Counted from the first letter of the stretch, positions 1,839 through 21,146 are shown. The stretch is 24,000 bases of DNA from Bacillota bacterium (GCA_023390335.1 JAEWCZ010000073.1:55094-79093), one strand, 5' to 3'. Program-made: numbers and translations. The notes: generated by a model not told the origin, from the letters alone.

Positions 1839-1858
1839 TCTTGCACCATCCCTAGCAC

Positions 1859-3118
1859 TTATTGGTAAAGTTCATTAATGTATTGCTCCTCTGTTTTTTG
1901 TTTATAAAGGAGATCCACCTTATCCTTATCAACAATAAAGAACTCACAAGTCATTGGATACATATAATTCTGAACACAAGAAAATGAATAGCTTCCACAA
2001 TTCAATGCTACAATGTAATCTTCTACATTCTGCTGTTCAATTTGGGCATTCCTCTTGATTATCCCAGCGAAAGAAGAAGTTCGATCACCAATCTGTACCG
2101 TAACCATGTCTCTACCATGTCTCTTTATTGGAAGTACATCGTACTCTCTTCCAAAAAAAGGCATTAAAATATTGGTGCCCATATCTGTAATCCACCAGAT
2201 CTCAGAACCGCACTCTTTTTCACATAGAATCTTTCCAATACATATCGCTGCATCATCTACTAAATATCTTCCAGGTTCAAGAATAAGCTTAGGCTGATAT
2301 TTCAATTCTTTTATTATCGGACACATTGCTTCTGCAAAATCATCAATTGTATTTCCAGCGCTCTTCATATGATTCCGACTTCCAAAGCCTCCACCTGGAG
2401 ATATGTAATCTAACTCTATACCTAAATTGTTATACAATTTTTCTGCAAAAGCTACCAATCCCTTTAGAGCTTTTACATGATTTGTTGGAGTGGTGTTCTC
2501 TACTGAAATATGACAGTGCAAACCAGCTAGTCTCACATTAGACATCTTTTTGATTTCCTGACATACAAGATAAGCCTGTCCAGATGCCACATCTACACCT
2601 AATTTACCGCCAGCTTCAATTTTTGAATGCAAATCACTAATATCCGGATTTATTCTAATTCCTATGTCTATGCATCTGTCATGTGCTTTTGCAAGATTGT
2701 TAATACGGATTGCTTCCTCTAATGAATCAACATTCCAATTTATTTTATTCTCCAGCAAATTTTTCATTTCGTCTTCCGTTTTTCCAGGGCTGTTCCACAC
2801 AACATTATTGCTAAGCCCATTCTTCTTTGCCATCTCAAACTCATATGAAGAACATACCTCTGCCGCAATTTGATTTTCCTTTATAATACGTAGGATTCCA
2901 GGAATATAACATGCTTTATATGCAAAATGAATACTACAATTTGGATATCTCTGATAAAAGGCATTTCTGATAGACTCTATATTATTAACTAGCCTCTGTT
3001 TCGAATATATAAACGCAGGACCGTTATAATTTTTTACTAAATCTTCTATACAAATGTTTTCCATATAAAGTTTGTCATCTAAATAATAAACAATTCCATC
3101 GTATATAGAGTTTTGCAT
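1859..3118 (-). CDS. PLP-dependent decarboxylase, Orn/DAP/Arg decarboxylase family (alanine-racemase fold, fold type III)
   Basis: 419-aa ORF with SD AAGGAGGAG upstream of the ATG at 3118. Family-like motifs: FAYKA (PLP-lysine context), GLHCHIS, PGGGFG (phosphate-binding Gly loop), EPGRYLV and a C-terminal NCGSYSFS (GAY-like). Confidence 0.8.
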   Translation of the reverse strand: MQNSIYDGIVYYLDDKLYMENICIEDLVKNYNGPAFIYSKQRLVNNIESIRNAFYQRYPNCSIHFAYKACYIPGILRIIKENQIAAEVCSSYEFEMAKKNGLSNNVVWNSPGKTEDEMKNLLENKINWNVDSLEEAIRINNLAKAHDRCIDIGIRINPDISDLHSKIEAGGKLGVDVASGQAYLVCQEIKKMSNVRLAGLHCHISVENTTPTNHVKALKGLVAFAEKLYNNLGIELDYISPGGGFGSRNHMKSAGNTIDDFAEAMCPIIKELKYQPKLILEPGRYLVDDAAICIGKILCEKECGSEIWWITDMGTNILMPFFGREYDVLPIKRHGRDMVTVQIGDRTSSFAGIIKRNAQIEQQNVEDYIVALNCGSYSFSCVQNYMYPMTCEFFIVDKDKVDLLYKQKTEEQYINELYQ

Positions 3119-3132
3119 TAAACTCCTCCTTA

Positions 3133-3411
3133 TTATTTAACCTCTTTGATGGTACCCAATTCTAACATTCTGATAATAAATGGTTCCACATCCTCATATA
3201 TTTCTTCTTTGGGCGCAGCATAATCTGTACATAATTTTTCAAGAAGCTTGTCAATTTCTAATTCTTGTTTCAGTAGATTAAAAATCTCTTCGCCAACTTC
3301 ATTCAACTCATACATGTCACCTGTTTCAGGATTATATGCCATAGTTGTTTTTCCAATATTTCTAATTAAAATGTTTTGATTAAATTCATATTTTAATTCT
3401 TCGATTTTCAT
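3133..3411 (-). CDS. PqqD-family protein (RiPP recognition element, stand-alone)
   Basis: 92-aa ORF with SD GGAGGG 8 nt upstream. Size and pattern (...YNPETGDMYELNEVGEEIFNLL...) are typical of PqqD/RRE winged-helix proteins. It sits in a radical SAM operon. Confidence 0.7.
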   Translation of the reverse strand: MKIEELKYEFNQNILIRNIGKTTMAYNPETGDMYELNEVGEEIFNLLKQELEIDKLLEKLCTDYAAPKEEIYEDVEPFIIRMLELGTIKEVK

Positions 3412-4177
3412 AATCTTTTCCCTCCAATAATTTACTGATTAATTTCGATACTTGTAATGCTATATCAATATTTTTTCTTGAATCCTCACATTGAAACTGA
3501 TTCACAGCCTCGACAATTTTACAATTTAAAATTCTATAATTAGGACTGCTGTATCTTTTTCCATTTATCTCAATCCCAACTTCCTTTGACCGTATAAAAC
3601 GAATTACTAATTCTTTTCCATTAATAACTCCTTTTAAGTCATCCCCATCTTGCTCTAGCTCAATATCATTGCCTATTTCAATCATCAGCCAGCTTAATAA
3701 ATGAGGAAGCATATGAATTATACTTGATATTAGTTCATTATTAATGGAAAACCATTTAATCTTATAACGTTCATCTTTTTCAATAGAGTAATGCTCAATA
3801 TCAAAATTCCGCTGGCATACAATTGCACATTTTTCGACATTGTACAGTATTTCCCTATATTTTTCTATTTCATCTTCTAAAATACTTAGCGGCTTCTCTA
3901 TGATAATAGCATTCTTATACTCTAAATCATTTATTAATCTTGATATGACTTCATACTTCTTTTCAAGAGACAAACAAATAATTATCATACCATATTTATC
4001 TATTTGCTCTTTGTCCAATGATGTTACAGGATAATAGCATAATCCAAACTCCTCGGCCAATTTCCTTGAAGCTCCAACTACTCCAATTCCTGAAACATCA
4101 ATTTCATGTTGTGTCCAAAGTAATGGTTCAACGTACCTTCTGGCAGCAATTCCTCCGCCTATCACTAAGATTCTCAT
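3386..4177 (-). CDS. NAD(P)-binding oxidoreductase, Gfo/Idh/MocA-like
   Basis: 263-aa ORF. N-terminal Rossmann signature MRILVIGGGIAA plus the EKP motif (IIIEKPLS) characteristic of Gfo/Idh/MocA dehydrogenases. Its start overlaps the stop of the upstream gene by 4 nt. Confidence 0.6.
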   Translation of the reverse strand: MRILVIGGGIAARRYVEPLLWTQHEIDVSGIGVVGASRKLAEEFGLCYYPVTSLDKEQIDKYGMIIICLSLEKKYEVISRLINDLEYKNAIIIEKPLSILEDEIEKYREILYNVEKCAIVCQRNFDIEHYSIEKDERYKIKWFSINNELISSIIHMLPHLLSWLMIEIGNDIELEQDGDDLKGVINGKELVIRFIRSKEVGIEINGKRYSSPNYRILNCKIVEAVNQFQCEDSRKNIDIALQVSKLISKLLEGKDYENRRIKI

Positions 4178-5457
4178 ATATTAATAAACTCAAAAAGACA
4201 TTTCCTGCTCCATTTTTCAAGGGTATCTGCAGATAAATCTTTCGTTGAAACGATAACCTTATTGGACCAGGTATCCTTTTCGTACCAATATTCATCATCA
4301 AGGATAATTCCATACTTTTCTGGATTTGCATACATATCAATTCCAGGGTAGCATTTTAGTAAGTTAAATGTTACAAGAGTAGGATTTATTCTTTTTACTA
4401 ACTCAACCATAGCCTGAAGATCTTCTTCTGTATCACCAGGATTACCTAAAATGAATGATGCATGAAATTCCATACCATATTTATGTAAAATATCTGTTTT
4501 TACTATTACTTCTTCATTACCAAGATTCTTTCCAATCACCTTAGAAGTTTTTGCATTGGAAGTCTCTACTCCAACAAATACCCTATATGCACCAATCTCT
4601 TTCATAAGTTTAATCTTATAATCATTAATGTCTTTGATTCTAATATTTGAAGTCCATTTAAACTTCAAATTTCTCCTTTTCACCTCATTTGCAAATTGAG
4701 TTAGCCTTTCATCGGAAAATGCAAAGGTATCATCAGAAAAGAAGAAACTCTTAAAACCATAAGATAAAAGTTCTTCAATTTCATCACAAAATCTTTCTAC
4801 TGAGAACAAAGAGAATTTGGCAAATTTGGATTTAATGCAAAAAAGACAATTGCTTGGACATCCTCTGGACGAACGAACTATTGTTTCAGAATCACGTCGT
4901 AAATATTTACTAATATCATATATTTCTCTATCCGGCATAGGTAAACTGTCTAATGGATAGTCGTTAAACTTTCGTTCTGTTATATTAAACTCACCATCTT
5001 TTGAAGTTCTGTATCCAATATTATTAATATTCTCAAAGGAACCCTTACCTTGTCTTGCCTCAAGAATTTTTAACAATGCATAGTCATCATCATGGCGAAT
5101 AACATAATCAAGTTCTGGATTACGTTCCAATACTTTTTCTGGAACGAAAGTCGCAATCTCACCTCTCATTGCAATTCCTACTTGTTCACCATATATTTCT
5201 CTCACCAATGGAATGATTTTTACTGCATTACTATGTGTTCTAGGATCATCATCAATAACTACAATATCTGGGCAATACTGACGTAACATCCCCTTCAATG
5301 TTTCAATATCTATATTATCAATTTTCATATCAATCAGATCTACTTCATGACCATTTTCTTTTAGCACTGCTGACCATATATAAACGTCTAGTGATGGTAA
5401 AATCAAATATTCTTTCACTCTATTCGGATATGGAGGTACAACAAATAGAACCTTCAC
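4174..5457 (-). CDS. B12-binding-domain radical SAM protein (class B rSAM; methyltransferase or other chemistry)
   Basis: 427-aa ORF. GTG start at 5457 with SD GAAGGGG about 9 nt upstream. The N-terminal ~130 aa look like a cobalamin-binding Rossmann domain (MKVLFVVPP..., DIVVIDDD). Radical SAM motif RGCPSNCLFC (CxxxCxxC). Confidence 0.85.
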   Translation of the reverse strand: MKVLFVVPPYPNRVKEYLILPSLDVYIWSAVLKENGHEVDLIDMKIDNIDIETLKGMLRQYCPDIVVIDDDPRTHSNAVKIIPLVREIYGEQVGIAMRGEIATFVPEKVLERNPELDYVIRHDDDYALLKILEARQGKGSFENINNIGYRTSKDGEFNITERKFNDYPLDSLPMPDREIYDISKYLRRDSETIVRSSRGCPSNCLFCIKSKFAKFSLFSVERFCDEIEELLSYGFKSFFFSDDTFAFSDERLTQFANEVKRRNLKFKWTSNIRIKDINDYKIKLMKEIGAYRVFVGVETSNAKTSKVIGKNLGNEEVIVKTDILHKYGMEFHASFILGNPGDTEEDLQAMVELVKRINPTLVTFNLLKCYPGIDMYANPEKYGIILDDEYWYEKDTWSNKVIVSTKDLSADTLEKWSRKCLFEFINI

Positions 5458-6319
5458 AATTATCTACCCCTTCCCCAATTATCTCTTTTAATGATGTTTC
5501 AAGCATTTTCCCTATTATGTCATTTCTTAAATTGCATCTTCCTACTTCTCCACTAGGTTCAATGCTCAGTGTATACTGGCTGTGACAACAATTCATTTCA
5601 AAGTAACGCTCATATACAGAATCATTAATTTCCCCGGATTCTTTTAATCTTCGAAGTGTAGGTAACAGCCTCATATCATGAAACAGTGTTTGGACTCCTT
5701 CTGATTTCATCGCCATTTTTTCAAAGAATCTGATATACTCTTCTTCTTTTTCCAATTCTAGAAGATATCCATCTTTTCTTTCCCTAAGAAAACTAATGAA
5801 TTCTATATTTAATTCTTCACCCAAATGATAAATATCTTCTAAACAAGATACATTGTTATCATTTACCGTAACACTCATTTCCGTATGTATTCCGTGATCC
5901 AAAAGTAATTTAATCGCATTTAATGCCTTAACATAGGCACCTTTATGGTTCCGATTCATATCATGCATTTCGGATTCACTATGGTCAATGCTTATGCACA
6001 CCTTTTGTATGTGGTTTTTCTTCAATATTGCTATCTTTCCTTCATCTATTAAGTAACCATTTGTCATTAATATCTGAACCATACCCTTTTTGTTGGCATA
6101 TGTAGACACTTTATCAAATAATTCACTTAATAATGGTTCTCCAAATGTATAATAGATTATAAACAGACCTTCTTCAAACAATGTATCTATTATTCTGTAA
6201 TAATCTTCTTCCACTAGTTTGTCCTTTTTTTTGGTAACAAAGCAATGCTTACAAGCCATGTTACATCTATATGATAAACCTAAATGCAATACATTTATCA
6301 TTCTTATTTTTCTCTCCAT
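5420..6319 (-). CDS. Radical SAM peptide-modifying enzyme with C-terminal auxiliary-cluster (twitch/partial SPASM) region
   Basis: 299-aa ORF. CxxxCxxC at YRCNMACKHCF. C-terminal Cys-rich region CCHSQYTLSIEPSGEVGRC (GxxxxC) followed by CEGSICC. The alternative start at 6301 (MINVLHL) has a better SD (GGAGAG). Confidence 0.85.
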   Translation of the reverse strand: MERKIRMINVLHLGLSYRCNMACKHCFVTKKKDKLVEEDYYRIIDTLFEEGLFIIYYTFGEPLLSELFDKVSTYANKKGMVQILMTNGYLIDEGKIAILKKNHIQKVCISIDHSESEMHDMNRNHKGAYVKALNAIKLLLDHGIHTEMSVTVNDNNVSCLEDIYHLGEELNIEFISFLRERKDGYLLELEKEEEYIRFFEKMAMKSEGVQTLFHDMRLLPTLRRLKESGEINDSVYERYFEMNCCHSQYTLSIEPSGEVGRCNLRNDIIGKMLETSLKEIIGEGVDNCEGSICCTSISE

Positions 6320-6326
6320 TGTTTCC

Positions 6327-6361
6327 CGAAAAAGTCACTGGTAAATCCAGTGACTTTTTCG
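6327..6361 (-). terminator. Intrinsic terminator/attenuator-like hairpin between precursor ORF and modifying enzymes
   Basis: Perfect 15-bp inverted repeat cgaaaaagtcactgg / ccagtgactttttcg with a 5-nt loop. On the minus-strand RNA, the GC-rich core stem GUCACUGG/CCAGUGAC is followed by UUUUUCG. Confidence 0.6.
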
Positions 6362-6401
6362 TAAGCAAGCTTAATTTTTAACTTTTCATGTCAAATTGTA
6401 A

Positions 6402-6458
6402 TTAGCAGTCAGCATAGATTACTCTAACACGTACAACAGGTTTATTCCATTGTTTCAT
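6402..6458 (-). CDS. Candidate precursor peptide, 18 aa: MKQWNKPVVRVRVIYADC
   Basis: Hand translation of the minus strand: GGAGGGG-ATAAAT-ATG AAA CAA TGG AAT AAA CCT GTT GTA CGT GTT AGA GTA ATC TAT GCT GAC TGC TAA. Strong SD at ideal spacing. It lies directly upstream of the rSAM/PqqD genes and is followed by a hairpin. It is too short for the ORF track. Confidence 0.55.
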   Translation of the reverse strand: MKQWNKPVVRVRVIYADC

Positions 6459-6589
6459 ATTTATCCCCTCCGTTCTATTTTATTTGGAGACAAAAATACA
6501 AAAACACTTCTGACTCCCATTTATAAAATACCTTTTAAATATGTAAGGTAATTTTATCTTTTTTATCACCGACCTCTTATATCAGTTTT

Positions 6590-7186
6590 GATTAAGAACA
6601 TTTAGTAATAGTTTTTTGGAAAAGCGAACCAGGTGTCAAAGAGAAGATATTTGGCGGATAAACGCTTAACAGAATCAAGAATTTTCAACATTACTTCTGT
6701 CGAATTTGCTTACTCTGGGTATTATCCGCAGGACATATAAGTTTCTTTTCATATCTGCTGCTCAAAAGTGAAAATTCAACTGGCAGAAATGTGGTGCCAT
6801 CAGACCAGCCAACTGTAAGCATTTTAAAACCTTTTATAAACTTATGGGTTGTATGGTCAAAAAACTCTTGAAAGCAGCTCTACTTTTTTACTTCTTCCTC
6901 GATTATACAAAGAATCATCAACACTCAGCACACTTGCTCTATCATCTGATCTTAGTTTGTTTATTTCATGTATAATTGCTGTAACAAGTAATAATAGCAA
7001 CCGAGACCAATTGTAACTACTAGAGTTGAGAAACCTGTAAGCCGTATTTTTCTTAAAAGATATATCTCCAGAACTCATATCCAAAGTCCTGTACAGGTTT
7101 TTGCCAGAGAAAATCAACCCAAATAATTGCTTCAGTAATTCTACGGGTTGAATGCCACTTTCTTTATAAAAATTGGAGCTCTCCAT
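6590..7186 (-). pseudogene. IS4/IS1634-like DDE transposase remnant, frameshifted and 3'-truncated
   Basis: The 109-aa ORF 6857..7186 ends at a TGA inside a T-run. The reading continues in another frame (FDHTTHKFIKGFKMLTVGWSDGTTFLPVEFSLLSS...), then stops again and resumes (MLKILDSVKRLSAKYLLFDTWFAFP) before ending near 6600. No catalytic C-terminal half is present. Confidence 0.7.
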
Positions 7187-8119
7187 ATGCTTATATATTG
7201 TAAACGTTGAAAAGAAATTATCAATTTTGGATTAAATAGCATTTTCATTGTTTGATTTATTTGTTATAATTGCATTCATAAATTCTGATCTTTTCATTGG
7301 TATTAGTTGTTTCTGGACAATTCTATCATCCAAAAATCTAGGAGTTTTTATATAATTATTAACATACCTGTATTAATTTATCAAAGAGCAAACCCATTTT
7401 TTAGGTGTAAAAATTGAGTTTATTAGTAATATATTACCTTTTTTGTTTATAAAATGCAACATGCTTTATTTACAAAATGCAACCTTTTTTTGATTGAGTC
7501 AATTAACTATAGGGAATTGAAAAACAGATATCACCCTAGGATTATGCAGTGTCTCCAGAGTCACGCTCTTGACAACAAGCATCTCCCATATGATTTTGTC
7601 AGCTAGGTGCAGCATCCTTCATAAGCGGGTATTCAAAGCAAGACAGCTGCCACTTTTTTAGTATATCATATGGATCCCTCTTATTGTAAAGGAGTTCGCT
7701 TCGCCGTTCTTTACTCTCCATTTGTTTTAAAAACTGCTTAAACATCTCAGACTATTATGCAGTGCAGTTTTATGACCTTTTTCAAGTATCGTTATATTAC
7801 TATTCCATGAGTTGAAATATCTATTGCTATTTGTCTTTTTTAGTTCCTCGATTATTTCATACTGGAATGTTTAAAGAAACAGCCAATAACAGCCGAAGAA
7901 CTTGTATTTGAAAAGATACAGGTAAGAAAACCAAAACTAATACCATAGAAAATAAATATTATAGTTTACCTTTTAGAACTGAATGAGTCCCCCTAGTTTG
8001 ACTATTACTTGTTATAAGTATATAATTAAATTATTGTAATTTTTTGACTAGATGCTCAACAACATCAATGAAAATGAGGTGATTATATAAACACACCTAA
8101 AACAACCGCTATTCTTCCC

Positions 8120-12892: not shown

Positions 12893-12967
12893 TTGAGTCC
12901 CCCTCTTATATCTATACATGTAGTAAAAAATAACCTGATGCATTAATACTATATTTGGAATATGCTG

Positions 12968-13405
12968 TTAAAGCCATTGAATAAATGCTGTTTTGTCATT
13001 TGAACTATATCCTGCTTTTCTGTAAAAATTCATTGTGCTCTCTTTTTTACTTCCTGTCATAAGCATGATTTTATAGCAATTATTGTCTATGGCTATTTGT
13101 TTTGCGTAATTAAGAATTGCTGTTGCGTAACCTTTGTTTCGATAAGATGTATCAGTAATTACATTTTCAATAAATGCATATGGTTGTTGATTATGGGTTA
13201 GATTAGGTACAATTAGTAGCACACAAGATGAAATGATAGTATCATCTATTTTTCCAATAATAACGTAATGATTCTTATCATTTAATATTTTTTCCCATAA
13301 TAAAAGTATTTCCTCATCAATTTCTGGCATGTGGTTATCATGAAGCTGAGTGTAAATCTTCAATAATCCGTTCAAATCATCTGCTTTTGCTTCATAAATT
13401 TTCAT
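12968..13405 (-). CDS. GNAT family N-acetyltransferase
   Basis: 145-aa ORF with acetyl-CoA motif A-like YRNKGYATAILNYA and SD GGGAGGG upstream. Confidence 0.85.
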   Translation of the reverse strand: MKIYEAKADDLNGLLKIYTQLHDNHMPEIDEEILLLWEKILNDKNHYVIIGKIDDTIISSCVLLIVPNLTHNQQPYAFIENVITDTSYRNKGYATAILNYAKQIAIDNNCYKIMLMTGSKKESTMNFYRKAGYSSNDKTAFIQWL

Positions 13406-13485
13406 AAAGGTACCCTCCCAAAATATAAAGATTACAAATGAAGTAAAATCCAGACCTTTTCATACATTAAAAGAAAGATGAACTA

Positions 13486-13494
13486 ATTATATCA
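13486..13494 (-). promoter_or_regulatory. Putative extended -10 promoter element (TGATATAAT) for the GNAT/methyltransferase cassette
   Basis: The minus strand reads TGATATAAT about 80 nt upstream of the ATG at 13405. I identified no convincing -35. Confidence 0.35.
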
Positions 13495-13514
13495 CGTAGA
13501 GAAACCTCATGAAA

Positions 13515-13554
13515 CTAAATACCAAAAGGAATCACAACATCAATAAACAGCTCT
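13515..13554. repeat. 40-bp direct repeat, copy 2 (3' end of the chaperone -1 frame extension)
   Basis: See copy 1. This copy is the genuine 3' end of an open reading frame; copy 1 is preceded by an in-frame TAA. Confidence 0.85.
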
Positions 13555-13724
13555 CTTTTCGGTTTAGCCAAACCATTAAACTGCTTGTGAATTTCCCATT
13601 GGTCCAGAAGCCCTCCAATGGGCATTAGCCAGACCTCCGCTTCATTTCTTCTTAGCTGTGTTACACCATAATAAATAGGCCGGGCAAACAATTCTTCATC
13701 GCTTACCCGACTGGCATGTTTTTT
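13515..13724 (-). CDS. -1 frame extension of the tail assembly chaperone (GT-like product), joined to ORF 13703..14143 at the slippery site
   Basis: The -1 frame is open from just upstream of the slippery heptamer. It reads ...KKHASRVSDEELFARPIYYGVTQLRRNEAEVWLMPIGGLLDQWEIHKQFNGLAKPKRELFIDVVIPFGI*. Confidence 0.5.
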   Translation of the reverse strand, partial: KKHASRVSDEELFARPIYYGVTQLRRNEAEVWLMPIGGLLDQWEIHKQFNGLAKPKRELFIDVVIPFGI

Positions 13725-14143
13725 GTGCTACTCTCCTCCGATTCAATGTATCTCTTTGTTCCCCTGTACATTGCTTCCATAATCACTTCTTTATATGTTG
13801 CAAGCTCAAAAGGCGAGGTCAAAAGTTCTACTTCTTCCTCAGTCAGAAGCTCTCTTCTGTCATTTTTGTTCTGTAAATTGTGTATAAGCACACCTTGATT
13901 TGCCAATAGTGTAATAAGCCATACTATTTTATCCAATGCCATTTCAAAGCTTTCTAATTTCATAGCCTTATCGCCTAATTTTTCAATTCCTCCATACCTC
14001 TTGGCTATTTCCTTTGTTGCCTTGGTAGTCAGAATTAGTTGATACTCCATACCGCCTATTTCTATTATATCTAATTGTTGTATAGGGGATTTTTCTATAA
14101 CAAAATGGCCTCTTGACTGTGTTGCTTTAATAAAGAGAATCAA
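13703..14143 (-). CDS. Phage tail assembly chaperone-like protein (G-like product)
   Basis: 146-aa acidic ORF. Its -1 frameshift architecture and TMP-related sequence elsewhere in the region support the call. The N-terminal start is uncertain. Confidence 0.5.
   Translation of the reverse strand: MILFIKATQSRGHFVIEKSPIQQLDIIEIGGMEYQLILTTKATKEIAKRYGGIEKLGDKAMKLESFEMALDKIVWLITLLANQGVLIHNLQNKNDRRELLTEEEVELLTSPFELATYKEVIMEAMYRGTKRYIESEESSTKNMPVG
13718..13724 (-). promoter_or_regulatory. Putative programmed -1 ribosomal frameshift slippery heptamer A_AAA_AAC
   Basis: The zero frame reads ACA AAA AAC ATG CCA GTC GGG TAA. The X_XXY_YYZ heptamer lies 5 codons before the zero-frame stop, and the -1 frame stays open for ~65 more codons. 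Confidence 0.5.
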
Positions 14144-14219
14144 GGGCGAGAATCGATTATCACTTCAGATAAGCACAGTCAGGGATGTAAGCGACAAGTT
14201 TGATGCTGTATCCCGGTAT

Positions 14220-14939
14220 GTGAAAGAAGAAAACCTGTATCAGATAATTATAAACAGGGATAAAATCCGGTATCCCTTTCAGGATTCCAGAGACAGAAGA
14301 CTTAATTTTACAATAGCCCATGAGCTGGGCCATATCCTACTTGACCATCTTTCCATTCCAGACATTCTTAAGACCGATGAAGAAAGAGACATTGAAGACC
14401 TGGAAGCAAATGAGTTTGCAGGCAAGCTTCTCATACCCGAAAAAACTTTATTACATTGTAACTTTGTATCCATACCTGCAGTAGCAGAATTTTTCAATGT
14501 ATCAAACACGGCTCTCTGGATAAGGCTTAACAATCTGCAAAGGCTTGATTTGCTTGAGTCCAAAATAACCCGGGTATGTAACAAATGCGGAAACACTCAA
14601 TTTCACGGGGCCGCAAGGTATTGCCGAATTTGCGGTAATCATCTAAAAAATAACCTTAACGGCGTTGAAAGAAAATCGTATTATGAAACTGTATCCTTTG
14701 ATGACTACTTCGACCAAACTGAATGCCCATACTGCGGTCAAAAACATTTTTACTGGCCGGAGGGCATTTACCCCAGTTGTAACATGCGACTGTATGACTA
14801 CTGCCACAAAGGGCTATATCTTGACAAAGGCAGCTGTTCTCATACAAAACCGGATTATACAAGGTTTTGTGAAATGTGCGGGCGTGAAACATATTTTAGT
14901 AGTATGGGGTTTTTGAAACTTTCAGAGTCAGTAAGGTAA
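14220..14939 (+). CDS. ImmA/IrrE-family (DUF955) zinc metallopeptidase fused to C-terminal zinc-ribbon repeats; possibly 5'-truncated
   Basis: HExxH motif in NFTIAHELGHILLDH. C-terminal CxxC pairs: CNKCG...CRICG, CPYCG...C, CEMCG. GTG start without SD. The frame stays open far upstream without a start codon, overlapping the chaperone gene on the other strand. Confidence 0.65.
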   Translation: MKEENLYQIIINRDKIRYPFQDSRDRRLNFTIAHELGHILLDHLSIPDILKTDEERDIEDLEANEFAGKLLIPEKTLLHCNFVSIPAVAEFFNVSNTALWIRLNNLQRLDLLESKITRVCNKCGNTQFHGAARYCRICGNHLKNNLNGVERKSYYETVSFDDYFDQTECPYCGQKHFYWPEGIYPSCNMRLYDYCHKGLYLDKGSCSHTKPDYTRFCEMCGRETYFSSMGFLKLSESVR

Positions 14940-14999
14940 AATATCTAAACAATTTATTTGAATTTATACACAAAAATCGTTAATATATCGCACTGTATC

Positions 15000-15024
15000 A
15001 GAGGCAGGCAAAATCCATGCCTCT
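15000..15024. terminator. Hairpin between convergent genes (possible terminator)
   Basis: agaggca-(11 nt loop)-tgcctct followed by tatattctc. It lies between the ImmA-like stop (14939) and the ARH stop (15032). Confidence 0.3.
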
Positions 15025-15031
15025 TATATTC

Positions 15032-16801
15032 TCAATAATTAAGCAGTATTTGTATAATTCTCTTAATATTCTGTAAGGTTAAGTTATATTTTCTCCACCG
15101 ATTTCTTAACATATTAAAAGTAGTTTCATCAAGTTCTCCAGTACTAGCTCGATCCACTTCAATCATTATGTCAGAAATTATAAAGAGATACTGATCTATT
15201 GGTATATTTTCTGGTAAAACATTTGCAAAACTCCTGAGCTTATTAGCAGTAATCATTACTTGTTTTCTTGCAGGTATAGATTTTTTTTGAATACCTTCAT
15301 TAAGGACCTGTGGTGTTTTTCTATAAACGGCTTCTCTATTTGTAAGTACGTCCTTGCTTTCATCCAAATTATTGTTTACGGATTGTCTGTTCTTATATCC
15401 TGTCATTTTTTCAGTAATATCGTTTTCAGGTACCATAACCATCTGAGATGTTACCTTCTCACAAGTTTTTATAAAAATTGTCTGTCCTTCTTCCGATCTG
15501 AGTTTTATTGTATAAACTGAAATCCCTTTTGCTATAGGTTTGTTAAGTCTCTTCTCTATTACTGTCAACAAATTAAAAGGATGAGTAATAATTCTATCTC
15601 CCACTTTGGCATCTTTTAGTTTACTTTTAAAGCCTGAATTTGAAATGTCAAACGGTATTAATTGAGTAAACGAATATACCTCTTTACTAGGGTCTACAGG
15701 TGAATACTGTACCAATTTCTTTATAAATTGATAGTCTTGAACATCAAACCATTTCGCTGACAGCCATTCAGTTCCATGGAGCATACCAAGTAGACCACCA
15801 ACCATAGATGCTAGGGTATCTGTGTCGGCATTGTTCAAATTAGCTGCTTCTACCAATCCAATGTATGGATTGGAAGCATATTTTGATGCTAAATATATTG
15901 AAGCTACTGCAGTCACTGTTCCAGAGCCATTTACTTTTGGGTCGAAGCATCCAAGCTTCACCAAAACATCATTTCCCATATCCAGTGCTCCTTGATTAAG
16001 GCCATTCTTTGCTATACTTAGTAAATTTATAGCTTCAGTTACAACACCGTCCCATAAATCTATATATTGCGATCCTATTACCACATCGGCATTTTCTATC
16101 CAATCCTCAAGTTTTTGAATTCTCGGAAATTGTGCCCATTTTTCATGATTCTCTATCAACATATTTACAAGCTCGCCATAACCTAATATTCCTTTATAAA
16201 CCGAAAGACATACCAAGGCATAGGCATATAAAGTTGCACCAAGCAATGCTCTTGGATGCCCATGTGTATATATACCGTTCAAGACAACTTGATGCATAAT
16301 CTCTTCAACCATATCTTCATTTCTAAATACATGAGGGAGTATCCTCATTGCTACTCCGTTACCTCCTGCATCGAAATATTTCCTGACGTCACTTATATTC
16401 TCAGTTTCTAATTTCCAAGGCTTTCTACCTCTTTTCCAAACCTCTGCTGCTCTCTTGGTAGCTCCTCCACCACCTCTTTCATATGAAAGCCAAGCTGGAA
16501 TTTCGTATTTTGTAAAATAACGATTCCAATTAGCCCCATAACGCAAACTTCTTGCAGTCGCAATTATCAATTGAGTATCATCACTATACTCTCCAGGATT
16601 AATTTCTTCTTCATGGTTCCAAAATTTACCACCACATCGTCTTTTCCAACTTTGAAAAAGCTCCACATTTGTAGGTTTAGAATTGCCTATCTTCTTACTA
16701 TTTTGTTCATTTGGCCAGCCCAAAGCATCTCCGACAGCCACACCTAAAAGAGCCCCCTGATATTTCTCAATTCTAAGATTGTCCACTTTGCACTCCAGCA
16801 T
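15032..16801 (-). CDS. ADP-ribosylglycohydrolase (ARH/DraG fold) with ~220-aa C-terminal extension of unknown function; candidate antitoxin
   Basis: N-terminal ARH signature YQGALLGVAVGDALGWPNE and C-terminal ARH signature NNADTDTLASMVGGLLGMLHG. The preferred start is ATG 16801 (MLECKV), with SD GGAGGTG 4-5 nt upstream. The track start at 16843 lacks an SD. Confidence 0.85.
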   Translation of the reverse strand: MLECKVDNLRIEKYQGALLGVAVGDALGWPNEQNSKKIGNSKPTNVELFQSWKRRCGGKFWNHEEEINPGEYSDDTQLIIATARSLRYGANWNRYFTKYEIPAWLSYERGGGGATKRAAEVWKRGRKPWKLETENISDVRKYFDAGGNGVAMRILPHVFRNEDMVEEIMHQVVLNGIYTHGHPRALLGATLYAYALVCLSVYKGILGYGELVNMLIENHEKWAQFPRIQKLEDWIENADVVIGSQYIDLWDGVVTEAINLLSIAKNGLNQGALDMGNDVLVKLGCFDPKVNGSGTVTAVASIYLASKYASNPYIGLVEAANLNNADTDTLASMVGGLLGMLHGTEWLSAKWFDVQDYQFIKKLVQYSPVDPSKEVYSFTQLIPFDISNSGFKSKLKDAKVGDRIITHPFNLLTVIEKRLNKPIAKGISVYTIKLRSEEGQTIFIKTCEKVTSQMVMVPENDITEKMTGYKNRQSVNNNLDESKDVLTNREAVYRKTPQVLNEGIQKKSIPARKQVMITANKLRSFANVLPENIPIDQYLFIISDIMIEVDRASTGELDETTFNMLRNRWRKYNLTLQNIKRIIQILLNY

Positions 16802-17495
16802 TACACACCTCCATAAACTTATCTTCCTGAGGAATGATTCCATTTCTTATTTTTTCACTACAAGAACTACTAAACAAATCTGGTGCAATAATTATATCAA
16901 TTTCCGGAATGTTTTTTAAGCAAGACCACCTAGTTTTCTCTCTGTGCGCTTGTTCTTTGGTCTCAACTGCCACTCCAATAATATCTTTTCTAGAAATATT
17001 CTTATAGACTAACACTTCTGCCTGATCATCTGTAGGGCAACAGGGTAACATTTTTTCCGTTCTTGTACGTGGCCATTTTCCATTCACGCTATGTGCAAAC
17101 ATTCCTTTAAAGGCCTCGGCTCCTTTTTCTATATATGCTCCACTTCTAAACGCAGCATTCGTAAAACAGAACTCCGTACTATCGAGCAATATTATTTCCG
17201 GTTTTATAAACAATACAACCCAATCTTTAAAAAGTGGTTCCTTATCTTTTACATTTTTAAAGTACCAATAATTAGGATACTGAACAGAACAGTTTATATA
17301 TTCCCTTTTTCCATCCAATCGTAACTTATCATTGGCATCATATATACTTTCATCTAAAAAGTCAACTGCTATAACTCCAGATTCACTACCTAATATATGT
17401 AAAGCTTTACTAGACCTTGTAAAATGGCACAGTCTTATAATACCTCTATCTTTTATTTCTTGTTCAATCATATCCCAAAATTTATCCTTCTTCAA
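16773..17495 (-). CDS. DarT-like ADP-ribosyltransferase (DUF4433-type); candidate toxin/effector
   Basis: 240-aa ORF. It carries the motif triad recalled from DarT: LCHFT (His, compare IYHITH), QYPNYWYF (Tyr, compare VPFYF) and DDQAEVLVYKNISRKDIIGV (catalytic Glu, compare KQAEFLVY...EEIGV). The TTG start at 17495 overlaps the helicase stop (TTGA). An alternative ATG lies at 17471. Confidence 0.65.
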   Translation of the reverse strand: MKKDKFWDMIEQEIKDRGIIRLCHFTRSSKALHILGSESGVIAVDFLDESIYDANDKLRLDGKREYINCSVQYPNYWYFKNVKDKEPLFKDWVVLFIKPEIILLDSTEFCFTNAAFRSGAYIEKGAEAFKGMFAHSVNGKWPRTRTEKMLPCCPTDDQAEVLVYKNISRKDIIGVAVETKEQAHREKTRWSCLKNIPEIDIIIAPDLFSSSCSEKIRNGIIPQEDKFMEVCNAGVQSGQS

Positions 17496-18907
17496 ATTAT
17501 TTTTGTTTTATGGTAAAGCGTTTCATCTTCAGGAATCAACTCAGTTGGTTCACCCGCATACGTTAATATCAAAGTACGTTTTGCCCTTGTAACAGCAACA
17601 TATACAAGTTTAACTTCCTCACTCATGGCTTCATCTCTATCCTCTAAAGCTAATATTTTTTCTTTATCTGGAAGCCTTTCGGAATTGAAGTATGGTAATA
17701 TTACCGCGTAAAACTCAAGTCCTTTCGCCGAATGGTAAGTACCTACAGATATTCCTGGTGAACTATCCCACCGGCTCATTTCTCCATTAAGCTCTTGACA
17801 TTTCAAGCCTTTTCTTAGGAGCTTTAACTTAATATCATTGACTGCTCCCCTATCTCTGACAAGAATTGCAACTGTTTGTGTTTTTGATATTGTTTCAGCG
17901 TTATTTATGATCCAATTAGTTTCTTTTGTTGCATCATCAAATTCAGCCAATACTGGAAGTGGAGCTGATGCAGTAGGTGATTTAGGTGTGACAAGATCAA
18001 CATTACTTTTAAAACAAGGGAGTTTAGAAATAGCAATTGCGAGTTCAGCAATTTCCTTACTATTTCTAAAATTCTGATCAAATTTCCAAATTTCATCTTT
18101 AGTAACATTGATACCTGCGTCCCTCCATGAAATCCTTCCTCCATATATCTGCTGTGCAACATCCCCAAAGAAAGTAAGACTTCCATCCTCAGGAATAGCT
18201 AAAACCAAAGATTGCAGCATAATCGGAGATAAATCCTGCCCCTCATCAATGATTATATGTTTATACATTCTATTAGTTTTATCTTTTCTAAATTCTTCCT
18301 TTGCAAAACGTGCTATATCATCCCAATCATATTTAAAACCCTTCTGTGCTCTAATTTCAAGATATCTTTCGTATACTCTAAAAAAGTATTCTCGCCTGTC
18401 TCTGGTAATTCTAGTTCCTGCCCTACCTATTCTTTCAGCGCCTATGTAATCTTGAAGCACAGTTATACCCATCTTCTCAATCCAGTTAATTTCTTCATTA
18501 AATACTTCAGGAGCCCTAGATAAAGTTGAGTTTTTCCCTATTTCCAAAATAACCTCAGCCATAGCCTCCTTAATTATGGATAGTTTTAAATCGGTGTCAA
18601 CAATATCATTCCATCCTATCATATCTCTATATGATAAATATCCTCGTGCAAATTTATGATAATTTTGAACAACAACCTTTTGTAGTGTCTTATCAGAAAT
18701 CGAATTCAAATATGTAACAAGAGATTTGTTGAAAGTTACTAACAAAACCTTTTGGTCACCTAAAGTATTTAACTTGGCTAAATAGGATGCCCTATGAATT
18801 GCAAGTGTAGTTTTTCCGCTTCCAGCTGTTCCAAGGACTATATAATGCCCTTTTTCAGGTAAGCATAATACTTCTTTCTGTTTTCCTTCCGGGGTAGGTA
18901 ATGACAT
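17492..18907 (-). CDS. SF1 UvrD/Rep-like helicase (short form, ~470 aa)
   Basis: Walker A GTAGSGKTT, motif II IIIDEGQDL, motif III FFGDVAQQIY, motif VI YVAVTRAKRTLIL. The preferred start is ATG 18907 (MSLPTP), with SD GGAAGGAGAGG. The track start at 18925 is a TTG inside that SD. Confidence 0.85.
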   Translation of the reverse strand: MSLPTPEGKQKEVLCLPEKGHYIVLGTAGSGKTTLAIHRASYLAKLNTLGDQKVLLVTFNKSLVTYLNSISDKTLQKVVVQNYHKFARGYLSYRDMIGWNDIVDTDLKLSIIKEAMAEVILEIGKNSTLSRAPEVFNEEINWIEKMGITVLQDYIGAERIGRAGTRITRDRREYFFRVYERYLEIRAQKGFKYDWDDIARFAKEEFRKDKTNRMYKHIIIDEGQDLSPIMLQSLVLAIPEDGSLTFFGDVAQQIYGGRISWRDAGINVTKDEIWKFDQNFRNSKEIAELAIAISKLPCFKSNVDLVTPKSPTASAPLPVLAEFDDATKETNWIINNAETISKTQTVAILVRDRGAVNDIKLKLLRKGLKCQELNGEMSRWDSSPGISVGTYHSAKGLEFYAVILPYFNSERLPDKEKILALEDRDEAMSEEVKLVYVAVTRAKRTLILTYAGEPTELIPEDETLYHKTKII

Positions 18908-18972
18908 TAAAACCTCTCCTTCCAAAATACACCACTAATTTTAGTTTAAATTGTAAAAATTTCTCATATACT

Positions 18973-18978
18973 ATTATA
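18973..18978 (-). promoter_or_regulatory. Possible -10 box (TATAAT) for the helicase/DarT-like/ARH operon
   Basis: The minus strand reads aaatgTATAATagt about 65 nt upstream of the ATG at 18907. There is no clear -35. Confidence 0.25.
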
Positions 18979-19769
18979 CATTTAAATATTACACAAGTAT
19001 ACATTAGTGGGATATTTTGGTTTACTAATATACCTGATTTTTTTACATATTTATGAAATTACATAATTAATAGGTATTTGGGGAGAGAATTATACGTGCC
19101 CTGCTATGAATGAAAATATTAGTTCAAAAACGACATACATTTTTATTGAGATGCGAAGAGTGTAAGATGTAAGTATAAATGAACCTGCAAGCAGGATTTT
19201 AAGTAAAAACACAAAATTTGACCTATGCAAAAAGGACCCTTAGGTCTTAAGATTTATAGCTAAATCTCAATTTGACCCGAAAGTCCTCTCAATGATAGTC
19301 TTCACTATTCTCTTTGTATATCCATAAATTTAAAATTACTAATAGCTTTATTGGCATAATCCTTATTTACTACTTCACATATCCACATGTTCATTTCCTT
19401 TTATGTACCTAAAATTATACTGTGATTAGAAGTATCATCTGCCAACATCCCAAACACCTTATGTCCCAATGCAAGTACAAAAATTCAGATGTTATCTATG
19501 AATTCATCCATTAAATAACTTTCCCTTCTGAGATTGAAGACTTCCTTAGTGGCTTGGAGTTCATTGATAAATACTTATTTACCTCAATAGCTACTTGGCA
19601 GAGAGCTTTCTCGCTAAGTTCAGACCTCGTAGCCTCGTCTTCACTAAGCTTTCAATGCCTCTATCAACGCAACCGCCTCAGCAGTAGCCCGTTTCCATTC
19701 AGCCTTCGACCTTGTCTCGGCTTCTTGGACGTGCTTTGCATGGGTGGTACATCAGCTTCTTCAGTCGTT

Positions 19770-21146
19770 TCACTTCTTCACAAGCTGTGTTACCGCCTCA
19801 ACATGCCCCGTCCACGGAAACATATCCACCGGTTGCACTTCCTTCACCTCAAACCCATGCTCCGTCAGGTACTTCAAATCCCTTGCCAGCGTGGACGGGT
19901 TACAGCTTACGTAAACAATCCGCTTTGGCTGCATTTCCACCAAAGTATTGAGCAACAACTGATCACAGCCTTTTCTTGGCGGGTCAACCACCACCACATC
20001 CGCCGTTACGCCCTGTTTATACAACTCAGGGATAACCTTCTCTGCCTCTCCCACCAAGAATTCCACATTTGAGACACCATTTAGTTCGGCATTTCTTTTA
20101 GCATCCCTGATAGCATCAGCAACAACCTCTACCCCTACAACACGCTTTGCCTTTTGCGAAAGAAAAAGCGAAATAGTTCCTATACCGCAGTAAAGGTCAA
20201 AAACAGTTTCATTCCCGGAAAGACCTGCATATTCCAAAGCCTTTTCATACAACACTTCCGTTTGAATCGGGTTAACCTGAAAGAAAGACAAAGGAGAAAT
20301 CTCAAATTTGAAGCTTCCAATATAGTCAGTTATGTACTTCTGCCCGTAAATACATATATTTTTATCCCCAAGAATAATATTTGTGTTTCTGATATTTACA
20401 TTTAAAATAATACTCTTAATATCAGGAAATCCTTCAAGCAGCTTATTAACCAGCTCATCGGATTTTATCAGCTTATCGCCGTTAATAACCAGAACCACCA
20501 TAAGTTCACCGGTCTTAAAACCCTTTCTCACCATTACATGGCGAAGAAGTCCCTTGCCGGTTTTCTCATTATAAATGGCTATACCCGCAGCCTTGCAAAA
20601 ATTTCTTACAACGTCTCTTATTTCATTGCTCTCATCAGGTTGTATTTCGCACAAATTGCTGTCAATAATATTGTGAGACCTTGTCTCATAGAAGCCAATA
20701 CTGATTTCACCATTGTTAGAACCCACCGGGTATTGAACCTTGTTCCTGTACTTATATGGATTTTCCATTCCAATTGTGGCATTTACTGTAACATCTTGAA
20801 GGCCACCAATTCTTCTGATATTTTGAAGAACCGTATCCTTTTTAAAATCCAGTTGTGCCTGATAGGTCATGTGTTGAACTGCACAACCACCGCATTTATC
20901 ATAGACGGGACAAAAAGGTTTTACTCTGTCCTCTGAAGATTTGTTTACTTTAACAAGCTGTCCCACCGCATAGCTCTTGGTTTGTTTTACTATTTTAATA
21001 TCAACATTTTCTCCGGGAAGAACCCCGTCAACAAAAACCACAAAGCCCTCAATTTTGCCTACACCCTGTCCTTCATGAGTTAAACCCGTTATATCAATTT
21101 TAAATGTTTTTTTCTGAGATAATGTCTTTTGAGAAGGCTGTTTCAT
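19770..21146 (-). CDS. rlmD: 23S rRNA (uracil-C5)-methyltransferase, RumA/RlmD family (TRAM + 4Fe-4S + MTase)
   Basis: 458 aa. N-terminal TRAM-like domain. Cys cluster CPVYDKCGGCAVQH. SAM motif DLYCGIGTISL. DPPRKG. C-terminal DMFPWTGHVEAV. Confidence 0.9.
   Translation of the reverse strand: MKQPSQKTLSQKKTFKIDITGLTHEGQGVGKIEGFVVFVDGVLPGENVDIKIVKQTKSYAVGQLVKVNKSSEDRVKPFCPVYDKCGGCAVQHMTYQAQLDFKKDTVLQNIRRIGGLQDVTVNATIGMENPYKYRNKVQYPVGSNNGEISIGFYETRSHNIIDSNLCEIQPDESNEIRDVVRNFCKAAGIAIYNEKTGKGLLRHVMVRKGFKTGELMVVLVINGDKLIKSDELVNKLLEGFPDIKSIILNVNIRNTNIILGDKNICIYGQKYITDYIGSFKFEISPLSFFQVNPIQTEVLYEKALEYAGLSGNETVFDLYCGIGTISLFLSQKAKRVVGVEVVADAIRDAKRNAELNGVSNVEFLVGEAEKVIPELYKQGVTADVVVVDPPRKGCDQLLLNTLVEMQPKRIVYVSCNPSTLARDLKYLTEHGFEVKEVQPVDMFPWTGHVEAVTQLVKK

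Follow-up and report, generated by a model that had tools for sequence, protein, structure and literature searches.

The association of a helicase, a DarT toxin and an ADP-ribosylglycohydrolase (ARH) within one operon was named DarHTG (candidate Liu-DS3) by Liu et al. (Nucleic Acids Res 2026, April; PMC13069673). Its parts are DarH, a UvrD-like helicase devoid of the 2B domain, the toxin DarT, and DarG3, which was likened to the ADP-ribosylglycohydrolases of archaea and eukaryotes and not to either of the known DarG types (PMC13069673). In E. coli, DarHTG protects against T4, T5, T7, and SSL_2009a in an abortive-infection-like manner, and this protection needs both the active site of DarT and the ATP-binding residues of the helicase (PMC13069673). 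Besides, a DarG3 mutant could not be constructed (PMC13069673), as would be expected for an antitoxin. The system occurs in less than 0.5% of E. coli genomes and is most frequent in Thermodesulfobacteriota and Bacteroidota, while its base specificity and the coupling between DarG3 and the helicase were not addressed in that description (PMC13069673). In a full-text literature search, this article was the sole description of the trio, none being found in DefensePredictor, in the phage AdfN paper or in Aravind's NAD-ADPr survey. The present analysis concerns a 24,000-nt stretch of DNA from a Bacillota bacterium (GCA_023390335.1, JAEWCZ010000073.1:55094-79093), hereafter called the window, whose positions are counted from its first letter. 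On its minus strand, positions 15032-18907 carry three tightly packed and co-directional open reading frames (ORFs) in the order helicase, DarT, and ARH, referred to as darH, darT, and darG3 (Table 1).

Assignment of the operon to the DarHTG family

This locus very probably constitutes a complete and apparently functional anti-phage system of the DarHTG type, working by a toxin-antitoxin or abortive-infection principle. Its gene order and domain content are identical to those of an operon retrieved from E. coli, with proteins of 471, 232, and 589 aa here versus 465, 221, and 561 aa there, and homology is found pairwise in all three proteins. The two helicases share 24% identity along their full length (481 collinear residues, E=1e-25), the two DarT proteins 26% (E=7e-10), and DarG3 and the E. 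coli ARH protein 32% over 369 residues (E=2e-41). Nevertheless, the window DarT is closer to DarT1 of E. coli C7 (35% identity) than to the DarT of the E. coli trio, DarG3 carries a four-helix tail specific to the Bacillota/Thermosipho lineage, and the host is a probable low-GC spore-former in which the operon lies beside prophage remnants. Judged by sequence comparison, the window operon is a member of the DarHTG family belonging to a distant and separate clade. The view of the initial annotation that such an architecture had not previously been described is therefore refuted, since it matches the named and validated DarHTG (PMC13069673).

Regarding the E. coli operon, blastn searches of 5426 E. 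coli genomes with the trios of the window, of Ralstonia, and of a gammaproteobacterial metagenome-assembled genome (MAG) gave no match. A tblastn search of plasmids with the window ARH led to a Salmonella plasmid encoding a helicase of 465 aa, a DUF4433 protein of 221 aa, and an ARH protein of 561 aa (references WP_000699006.1, WP_000151475.1, and WP_001087212.1 for the E. coli/Salmonella trio). By blastn with this Salmonella trio, a chromosomal operon of at least 99.9% identity was detected in 21 of the 5426 complete E. coli genomes (0.39%), the PGAP labels of which read '3'-5' exonuclease', 'DarT family', and 'ADP-ribosylglycohydrolase family'. In E. coli AR_0128 (L097), the trio is located by ychF in an island rich in integrases and insertion sequences (IS).

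In the window, translation of darH most plausibly starts at the ATG at 18907, which has GGAGAGG ahead of it, the longest ORF beginning at TTG 18925. The darT start at 17471 is that of independent public gene calls on two assemblies with an identical locus, and with another possible start, the TTG at 17495, darT would overlap the stop codon of the helicase, so that the two genes are either separated by 20 nt or overlapping. As for darG3, it starts at ATG 16801 with GGAGG ahead (longest ORF from 16843) and overlaps the 3' end of darT by 29 nt. The three genes are predicted to be translationally coupled. In terms of families, Pfam recognises UvrD-helicase (E=2e-19) and UvrD_C (E=8e-21) in DarH, DarT PF14487 in the second protein (E=6.4e-18, profile positions 1-198 of 201), and ADP_ribosyl_GH PF03747 in DarG3 (E=6.8e-38). 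These matches lie far above chance. None of the three proteins shows a macrodomain in Pfam, and no NADAR is present in DarG3 or in the window.

Most of what the initial annotation had read from the DNA is thereby borne out. This applies to the three co-directional genes, to their overlapping boundaries (between darH and darT with the TTG start only), and to every motif that it quoted, the ARH signatures GVAVGDALGWP and ADTDTLASMVGGLLG included. It also applies to the assignment of the genes to a superfamily 1 (SF1) UvrD-type helicase, a DarT-like transferase with an H-Y-E triad, and an ARH/DraG-type hydrolase, to which the intact helicase motifs, the profile match to DarT1, the Foldseek matches, and the intact metal site described below add. 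Family matches and synteny likewise agree with its proposal of an ARH-fold hydrolase standing in for the macrodomain antitoxin, behind an SF1 helicase gene that is a fixed upstream part of the operon. The second protein is indeed a DarT, though of 232 aa with the start of the public gene calls, not of the 240 aa first given. A PADLOC analysis of the locus had also been suggested at that stage. The best models for DarH are those of GajB-type UvrD helicases (E=7e-30), DarT is weakly matched, and the ARH protein has no match in PADLOC 2.0.0, which indicates that this release contains no ARH model for DarHTG.

Since the adjacent phage genes are clearly remnants and a decayed transposase-like region lies at 6330-8100, the operon itself could be thought of as a decaying and non-functional piece of prophage cargo. 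This is very improbable: all three ORFs are full length compared to their homologues (DarH has 471 aa where the family median is 468, DarT 232 aa, and DarG3 589 aa with a coverage of 98-100%), the catalytic motifs of all three proteins are intact, the operon is identical on independent assemblies, and selection would act against an unopposed DarT or a lost antitoxin. A functional DarHTG-type operon fits these features better.

Table 1. Positions of the operon, of the DarG3 domains and of adjacent features in the window
Feature	Position	Strand	Description and basis
darH	17492..18907	-	471-aa SF1A UvrD-like helicase without 2B domain; Pfam, PADLOC, alignment to UvrD
darT	16773..17471	-	232-aa DarT1-like ADP-ribosyltransferase toxin; Pfam PF14487, profile match to DarT1
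darG3	15032..16801	-	589-aa ADP-ribosylglycohydrolase-fold antitoxin with C-terminal extension; Pfam, AlphaFold, Foldseek
DarG3, ARH catalytic domain	15707..16801	-	aa 1-365; pLDDT mostly >90
DarG3, small beta-rich domain	15452..15664	-	aa ~380-450; one helix and four strands; PF...EGQT[IL]x[IV]K motif; confidently modelled
DarG3, predicted disordered linker	15266..15445	-	aa 453-512; pLDDT <50, no secondary structure, poorly conserved
DarG3, C-terminal four-helix tail	15038..15247	-	aa 519-588; pLDDT 80-97, lineage-specific
Terminator-like hairpin	15006..15022	.	between darG3 and the M78 gene, which converge; site AGGCAAAATCCATGCCT with a T-rich tail behind it, + strand
AT-rich intergenic region	18908..19769	-	upstream of the operon; presumed promoter region, role inferred only
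M78 metallopeptidase gene	14220..14939	+	ImmA/IrrE-type, N-terminally truncated, zinc ribbons; prophage immunity remnant
Phage tail protein gene	13703..14143	-	isolated; prophage remnant; phrog_2115 E=3.9e-24

Predicted activities of DarT, DarG3, and DarH

Both characterised DarT types modify bases in single-stranded DNA (ssDNA) (PMC11543638). The window DarT, whose motifs are LCHFT, YPNYWYF, and QAEVLVY, has 481 detected homologues, all of them belonging to PF14487. When a family profile built from 17 homologues was compared to the PDB, the guanine-specific DarT1 of E. coli C7 (8BAQ) was the single match (E=7e-38), and no DarT2 structure was found even at E<=10. By sequence, the window DarT is far nearer to DarT1, which is guanine-specific, than to the thymidine-specific DarT2. 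Among 17 diverse DarTs of the window clade, H16, R51, D53, Y65-P-N, N105-A-A, and Q150-A-E152 are invariant, and H16, R51, N105, and Q150 are still so after addition of DarT1 and of the Streptomyces and E. coli-type trio DarTs. The catalytic Glu (E152 in the window) aligns across the trio DarTs and DarT1, the crystal form of the latter being E152A. The E. coli-type trio DarT has a Glu in place of Y65 of the window clade, and also at the position of the Asp that matches D54 of DarT1 and is conserved in the window clade. The six residues that are essential in DarT1, R52, D54, M71, N104, Q150, and E152 (PMC11543638), align with R51, D53, Y70, N105, Q150, and E152, M71 being the only one that differs (Tyr in the window). 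N104 of DarT1 holds guanine N2/N3, and its counterpart in the thymine-specific DarT2 is His119 (PMC11543638). It is likely that the window DarT modifies ssDNA, and its DarT1-like sequence and conserved guanine-coordinating Asn make guanine-N2, as with DarT1, a somewhat more probable target than thymine.

In comparison with DarTG1 (E. coli C7 and Geobacter; Schuller et al., Mol Cell 2023, PMC11543638), the window system has the closest solved relative of its toxin in common, together with the catalytic set R52, D54, N104, Q150, and E152 and the principle of a toxin-antitoxin-type anti-phage system relying on reversible ADP-ribosylation of DNA bases. However, the DarTG1 antitoxin is a NADAR protein whereas an ARH fold is found here, with a helicase gene in addition. 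On such partners, Schuller et al. note only a linkage of DarT genes with 'different hydrolases' (PMC11543638). In DarTG2 (Thermus, enteropathogenic E. coli, and M. tuberculosis), an ssDNA ADP-ribosyltransferase toxin is similarly accompanied by an enzymatic de-ADP-ribosylating antitoxin with an extra C-terminal region, which in DarG2 binds the toxin (PMC11257639). DarTG2 differs from the window system by its macrodomain DarG, by the lack of a helicase in its canonical form, and by the His of DarT2 at the base-coordinating position, where the window clade has an invariant Asn.

The AlphaFold model of DarG3 (mean pLDDT 84.7) displays four parts (Table 1). Its top matches in the PDB, as found by Foldseek, are MJ1187, Tri1 (6DRE), ARH3, Lmo0067, DraG, and ARH1, with E-values from 1e-8 to 1e-5, and the metal-site motifs GDALG...E (D25, E32), SDD (S73, D74, D75), and DxDT (D326, D328, T329) are invariant in 35 homologues. 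Tri1, Lmo0067, and DraG all come from pairs, namely Tre1/Tri1, Listeria Lmo0066/Lmo0067, and DraT/DraG, in which the gene of an ARH-fold hydrolase stands beside that of the ADP-ribosyltransferase it reverses; in the window, genes of these two kinds are likewise adjacent. These pairs nevertheless comprise transferases of other clades that modify protein arginine, lack a helicase, and serve nitrogenase regulation or interbacterial effector-immunity instead of phage defence.

The C-terminal part of DarG3 combines a widely shared and a lineage-restricted element. Using an iterated hidden Markov model, the beta domain was found in 70 trio-associated ARH ORFs across phyla, whereas the helical tail is detectable by sequence in 12 loci only, all of them belonging to Bacillota or relatives of Thermosipho. 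When the profile of the beta domain was run against 1.84 billion representative proteins, it yielded only 36 matches, almost all to DarG3-like proteins or fragments, with the domain almost confined to proteins as long as DarG3 and at the same position, and gave no functional clue from other contexts; a few very long repetitive proteins among the 36 look like low-complexity matches. When modelled alone, the C-terminal region has no significant match in the PDB (best E=0.045, with a faint likeness to the CarD-N and eIF5A SH3-like barrels), and none was obtained for the fold of the four-helix tail. Alignment with the C-terminus of E. coli DarG3 is restricted to 16 columns around a short GQT strand and is not significant (hhalign E=0.03). 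As a separate observation, ARH proteins of 733-933 aa are encoded in several Chloroflexota and Acidobacteriota loci (variant loci L023, L035, L037, and L089), which suggests extra C-terminal domains.

DarH displays the SF1 motifs GSGKT, DEGQD, FGDVAQQIY, and VAVTRAK, and 67 members of its family (median 468 aa) conserve the Q motif, Walker A, DEGQD, FGDxxQQIYG, NYRN, GTxHxxKGLEF, and YVxxTR. Alignment with E. coli UvrD pairs residues 7-63 with 11-66, 213-295 with 212-298, and 374-455 with 544-618, leaving 78 aa in DarH where UvrD has 245 (UvrD 299-543). About 165 aa, corresponding to the 2B domain, are thus missing. According to the UvrD domain boundaries reportedly drawn by Lee and Yang in 2006, what DarH has in this gap fits the first half of 2A, not 2B. 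On these alignments, DarH is assigned to the UvrD-family SF1 helicases without a 2B domain. As the related Rep helicase is freed from autoinhibition when its 2B domain is deleted, DarH could plausibly be a constitutively competent translocase. In the same line, the DarHTG paper cites Cheng et al. for 2B being dispensable (PMC13069673).

Gabija shares with the window system a UvrD-like ATPase as the essential partner of an effector, GajB-type models being the nearest to DarH in PADLOC. The effector of the window system is nevertheless an ADP-ribosyltransferase with a dedicated reversing enzyme and not the OLD-family ATPase/TOPRIM nuclease GajA, which had no PADLOC match among five proteins (the trio and two downstream neighbours), the helicase being flanked by darT and rlmD. 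Besides, NCBI annotation names DarH a '3'-5' exonuclease' in E. coli AR_0128 (L097, 12001-13398) and on a Streptomyces plasmid (L096, 1915-3258). Pfam reveals no nuclease domain in the window DarH, only SF1 helicase motifs being seen, and this product name is probably misleading.

The substrate of the three proteins could also be imagined as RNA or protein, with a transferase acting on either, an ARH enzyme reversing a protein-Arg/Ser or RNA mark in the manner of DraT/DraG, Tre1/Tri1 or the Listeria pair, and the helicase working as a HelD-type RNA-polymerase or RNA motor. To our knowledge, no ARH-fold enzyme has been characterised with a substrate other than protein or small-molecule ADP-ribose, Tri1 and Lmo0067 are among the closest structural matches of DarG3, and DarH has weak matches to the RNA-polymerase recycling motors HelD and HelR. 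However, the HelD/HelR scores are far under the family cut-offs, and the transferase unambiguously belongs to the DarT family, with the DNA-base catalytic set of DarT1 including the base-coordinating Asn. As bases in ssDNA are the targets of the two DarT types characterised so far (PMC11543638), an RNA or protein target is regarded as improbable, and ADP-ribosylation of ssDNA is retained as the predicted activity.

Recurrence of the trio and proposed function

A pattern scan for DarT relatives, retaining one genome per species, identified 209 genomes, of which the best 80 loci were analysed. The helicase gene lies directly upstream on the same strand in 71 of the 72 loci with room for it, the ARH gene directly downstream of darT in 70 of 71, and all three genes in the same order in 64 of the 65 species-level loci with room for the trio. 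The co-occurrence of the three families, which the first reading had left to be checked, is thus verified: the three genes are inherited together across phyla. No fourth conserved gene was found across the trio loci. The trio is patchily spread over more than 12 phyla as well as plasmids, the 80 loci covering Bacillota, Cyanobacteriota, Chloroflexota, Acidobacteriota, Latescibacterota, Planctomycetota, Spirochaetota, Kiritimatiellia, Gemmatimonadota, Rhodothermales, Actinomycetota, alpha-, beta-, gamma-, and deltaproteobacteria, and one Heimdallarchaeota MAG. Thermosipho, Bacillus velezensis, a Ralstonia megaplasmid, and Shinella are further hosts. A protein search with a proteobacterial DarT profile gave 2282 matches (more than 2000 DarT protein clusters), with no E. 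coli-named entry among them. Among the 119 immediate neighbours of the trio loci are pAgo (5), SIR2-APAZ (5), PglX (4, a BREX context), Schlafen-AlbA2 (4), and NADAR (2), and also type I and IIG restriction enzymes, which is the company of defence islands.

Several arrangements depart from the trio. On the Nostoc sp. C052 plasmid pC052_C (L008, 1278-8026), another DarT-ARH arrangement lies inside a BREX-1 locus, between pglX and pglZ. Its products are an AAA-domain protein (1246 aa), a DarT-family protein prolonged by a long N-terminal stretch (531 aa in all), and an ARH protein (505 aa), with no DarH-type helicase match. In Bryobacterales (L075, 6893-10088), darT is accompanied by the gene of an 806-aa ARH protein, with no DarH match upstream. 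On the small Lactococcus lactis plasmid pIL105 (L093, 703-2068), a DarT-family gene precedes a hypothetical gene of 247 aa, with no helicase and no annotated partner domain, which may represent another DarT pairing. Finally, the complete helicase-DarT-ARH trio of the Candidatus Heimdallarchaeota MAG (L053, 305-3968) lies on a contig of 4.9 kb, and its presence on an Asgard-binned contig could reflect horizontal transfer or a binning error.

The distribution of the trio also bears on whether it might be a housekeeping or regulatory module of reversible DNA ADP-ribosylation, dedicated to replication and growth control or to lesion marking with DarH as a repair motor, instead of an anti-phage system. 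Such a role would suit the chromosomal site between rlmD, the uracil-DNA glycosylase gene, and sporulation genes, where the window shows no other recognised defence gene, as well as the UvrD family, whose helicases are classical repair enzymes. It would also be reminiscent of M. tuberculosis DarTG, which regulates replication (at oriC) and adjoins dnaB (PMC12170906; PMC11543638). The horizontal and patchy spread speaks against it, as do the confinement to only 0.39% of E. coli genomes, in an island rich in integrases and IS, the pAgo, BREX, and restriction-modification neighbours elsewhere, and the prophage remnants here. In addition, the E. coli homologue protects against phages (PMC13069673). 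A housekeeping role is hence considered improbable, and anti-phage defence remains the preferred function.

Some observations weigh against this assignment or against parts of it. The proteins of the window share only 24-32% identity with those of the E. coli trio, and anti-phage function is shown for the E. coli system only, so that it would extend to the window clade by analogy. We infer that the retrieved E. coli operon is Liu-DS3 from its composition and from its prevalence of 0.39%, to be compared with the published '<0.5%'. The match between the window DarT and the PADLOC DarT model is weak (E=0.011), and no other recognised defence system stands beside the operon in the window. DarT relatives are also rare on phage contigs, with 3 loci in IMG/VR and none in GenBank phage records, from which it appears that the trio is not typically phage-encoded. 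As for the antitoxin, we know of no ARH-fold enzyme shown to cleave base-linked ADP-ribose on DNA. Finally, M71, K74, and Y75 of DarT1 correspond to Y70, N73, and V74 in the window DarT, and as K74 and Y75 are the guanine O6/N7 contacts of DarT1 (PMC11543638), guanine specificity is not assured.

For a DarHTG-type defence system, the following mechanism can be proposed. In the uninfected cell, DarG3 would remove the ADP-ribose that DarT puts on ssDNA bases, hydrolysis of the ADP-ribose-base bond by DarG3 being rather likely. More speculatively, DarG3 might also hold DarT or DarH, using its conserved, family-specific beta domain together with the helical tail. During infection, DarH would load on phage DNA ends or forks and supply or sense the ssDNA that is marked by DarT; marking would then outrun DarG3, thereby blocking phage replication. 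This infection step is put forward tentatively. The same reserve applies to the broader proposal that DarHTG performs helicase-coupled guanine-N2 ADP-ribosylation of DNA, with DarG3 as the first ARH-fold eraser of base-linked DNA ADP-ribose, the beta domain coupling DarG3 to DarT or DarH, and the activity of the helicase on phage DNA deciding between writing and erasing. The obligatory helicase without 2B could act as a sensor, as an ssDNA supplier or as a regulator.

While the architecture itself is already known since 2026, the window locus is a well-preserved representative of a large and divergent DarHTG clade, which extends to at least 209 species-level genomes by the search patterns used. 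If removal of a guanine-N2 mark by an ARH-fold enzyme were confirmed, the substrates of the ARH superfamily would come to include nucleic acids. It would also become clearer why three folds as unrelated as macrodomain, NADAR, and ARH serve as erasers beside DarT toxins.

Genomic surroundings of the operon

The window comes from a chromosome of low GC content (~33%). The operon is flanked on one side by rlmD, a uracil-DNA glycosylase gene, and a sporulation gene (YtfJ), and on the other side by genes of GNAT acetyltransferases and methyltransferases and by a radical-SAM/PqqD cluster. The host would accordingly be a spore-forming member of the Bacillota, probably of the Clostridia. The initial annotation had placed it in an accessory region next to prophage debris, and the remnant of a tail gene and the truncated ImmA-like protease agree with this. 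The gene of this M78 protease, directly downstream of and convergent with darG3, matches Pfam Peptidase_M78 (E=1.4e-11) at positions 39-122 only and phrog_19315 (E=2e-35) at positions 83-320 of 348. No phage structural gene other than the tail gene was found in the window, and a search for flanking direct repeats or att sites at 12900-19900 returned only short repeats at chance level.

In a matching convergent position, Thermosipho (L003, 8406-10108) and a Clostridia MAG (L010, 2517-4627) encode a full-length M78 protein of 435 aa with zinc ribbons. In these two loci, the closest relatives with available context, an Xre-type repressor is encoded along with it, as well as a divergent Cro-like gene. 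Because of this M78/Xre/Cro module, the trio looks like cargo of a prophage or of an integrative and conjugative element, located beside the immunity switch, the element having decayed around the window trio. The operon was probably brought by such a since-decayed prophage. The M78 peptidase was also considered as a fourth component or as a CapP-like regulator and was rejected, since no more than three related loci have it as a neighbour, there as part of an ImmA/ImmR-Cro prophage switch.

The terminator-like hairpin is a consensus match only, such sites being no more numerous than in shuffled sequence. The same holds for the promoter-like hexamers at 19116-19089 and 18967-18938, which are not enriched over shuffles. 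The presumed promoter region contains no ORF with a family match and no Rfam family, and Rfam and tRNA scans of the whole window gave no matches.

Further away, a RiPP-like (ribosomally synthesised and post-translationally modified peptide) cluster occupies 60-6319 on the minus strand. It encodes an ABC transporter (592 aa), a pyridoxal phosphate-dependent Orn/DAP-type decarboxylase (419 aa), a PqqD-like peptide chaperone (92 aa), a GFO/IDH/MocA oxidoreductase (263 aa), a B12-binding radical SAM protein (427 aa), and a second radical SAM protein (299 aa); its precursor peptide was not identified. Between this cluster and the next genes, 6330-8100 holds many short broken ORFs, including one of 109 aa (6857-7186) that has the appearance of a transposase fragment and matches neither Pfam nor PHROG, and may be a decayed insertion sequence. 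On the other side of the operon, a relatively GC-rich stretch of ~230 nt without Rfam family (19540-19770) lies directly past the rlmD stop codon. When read in the rlmD frame past the stops, it gives ...WKRATAEAVALIEALKA followed by two stops, which echoes the RlmD C-terminus ...HVEAVTQLVKK. An integration long ago may have left this stretch behind as what remains of an alternative rlmD 3' end.

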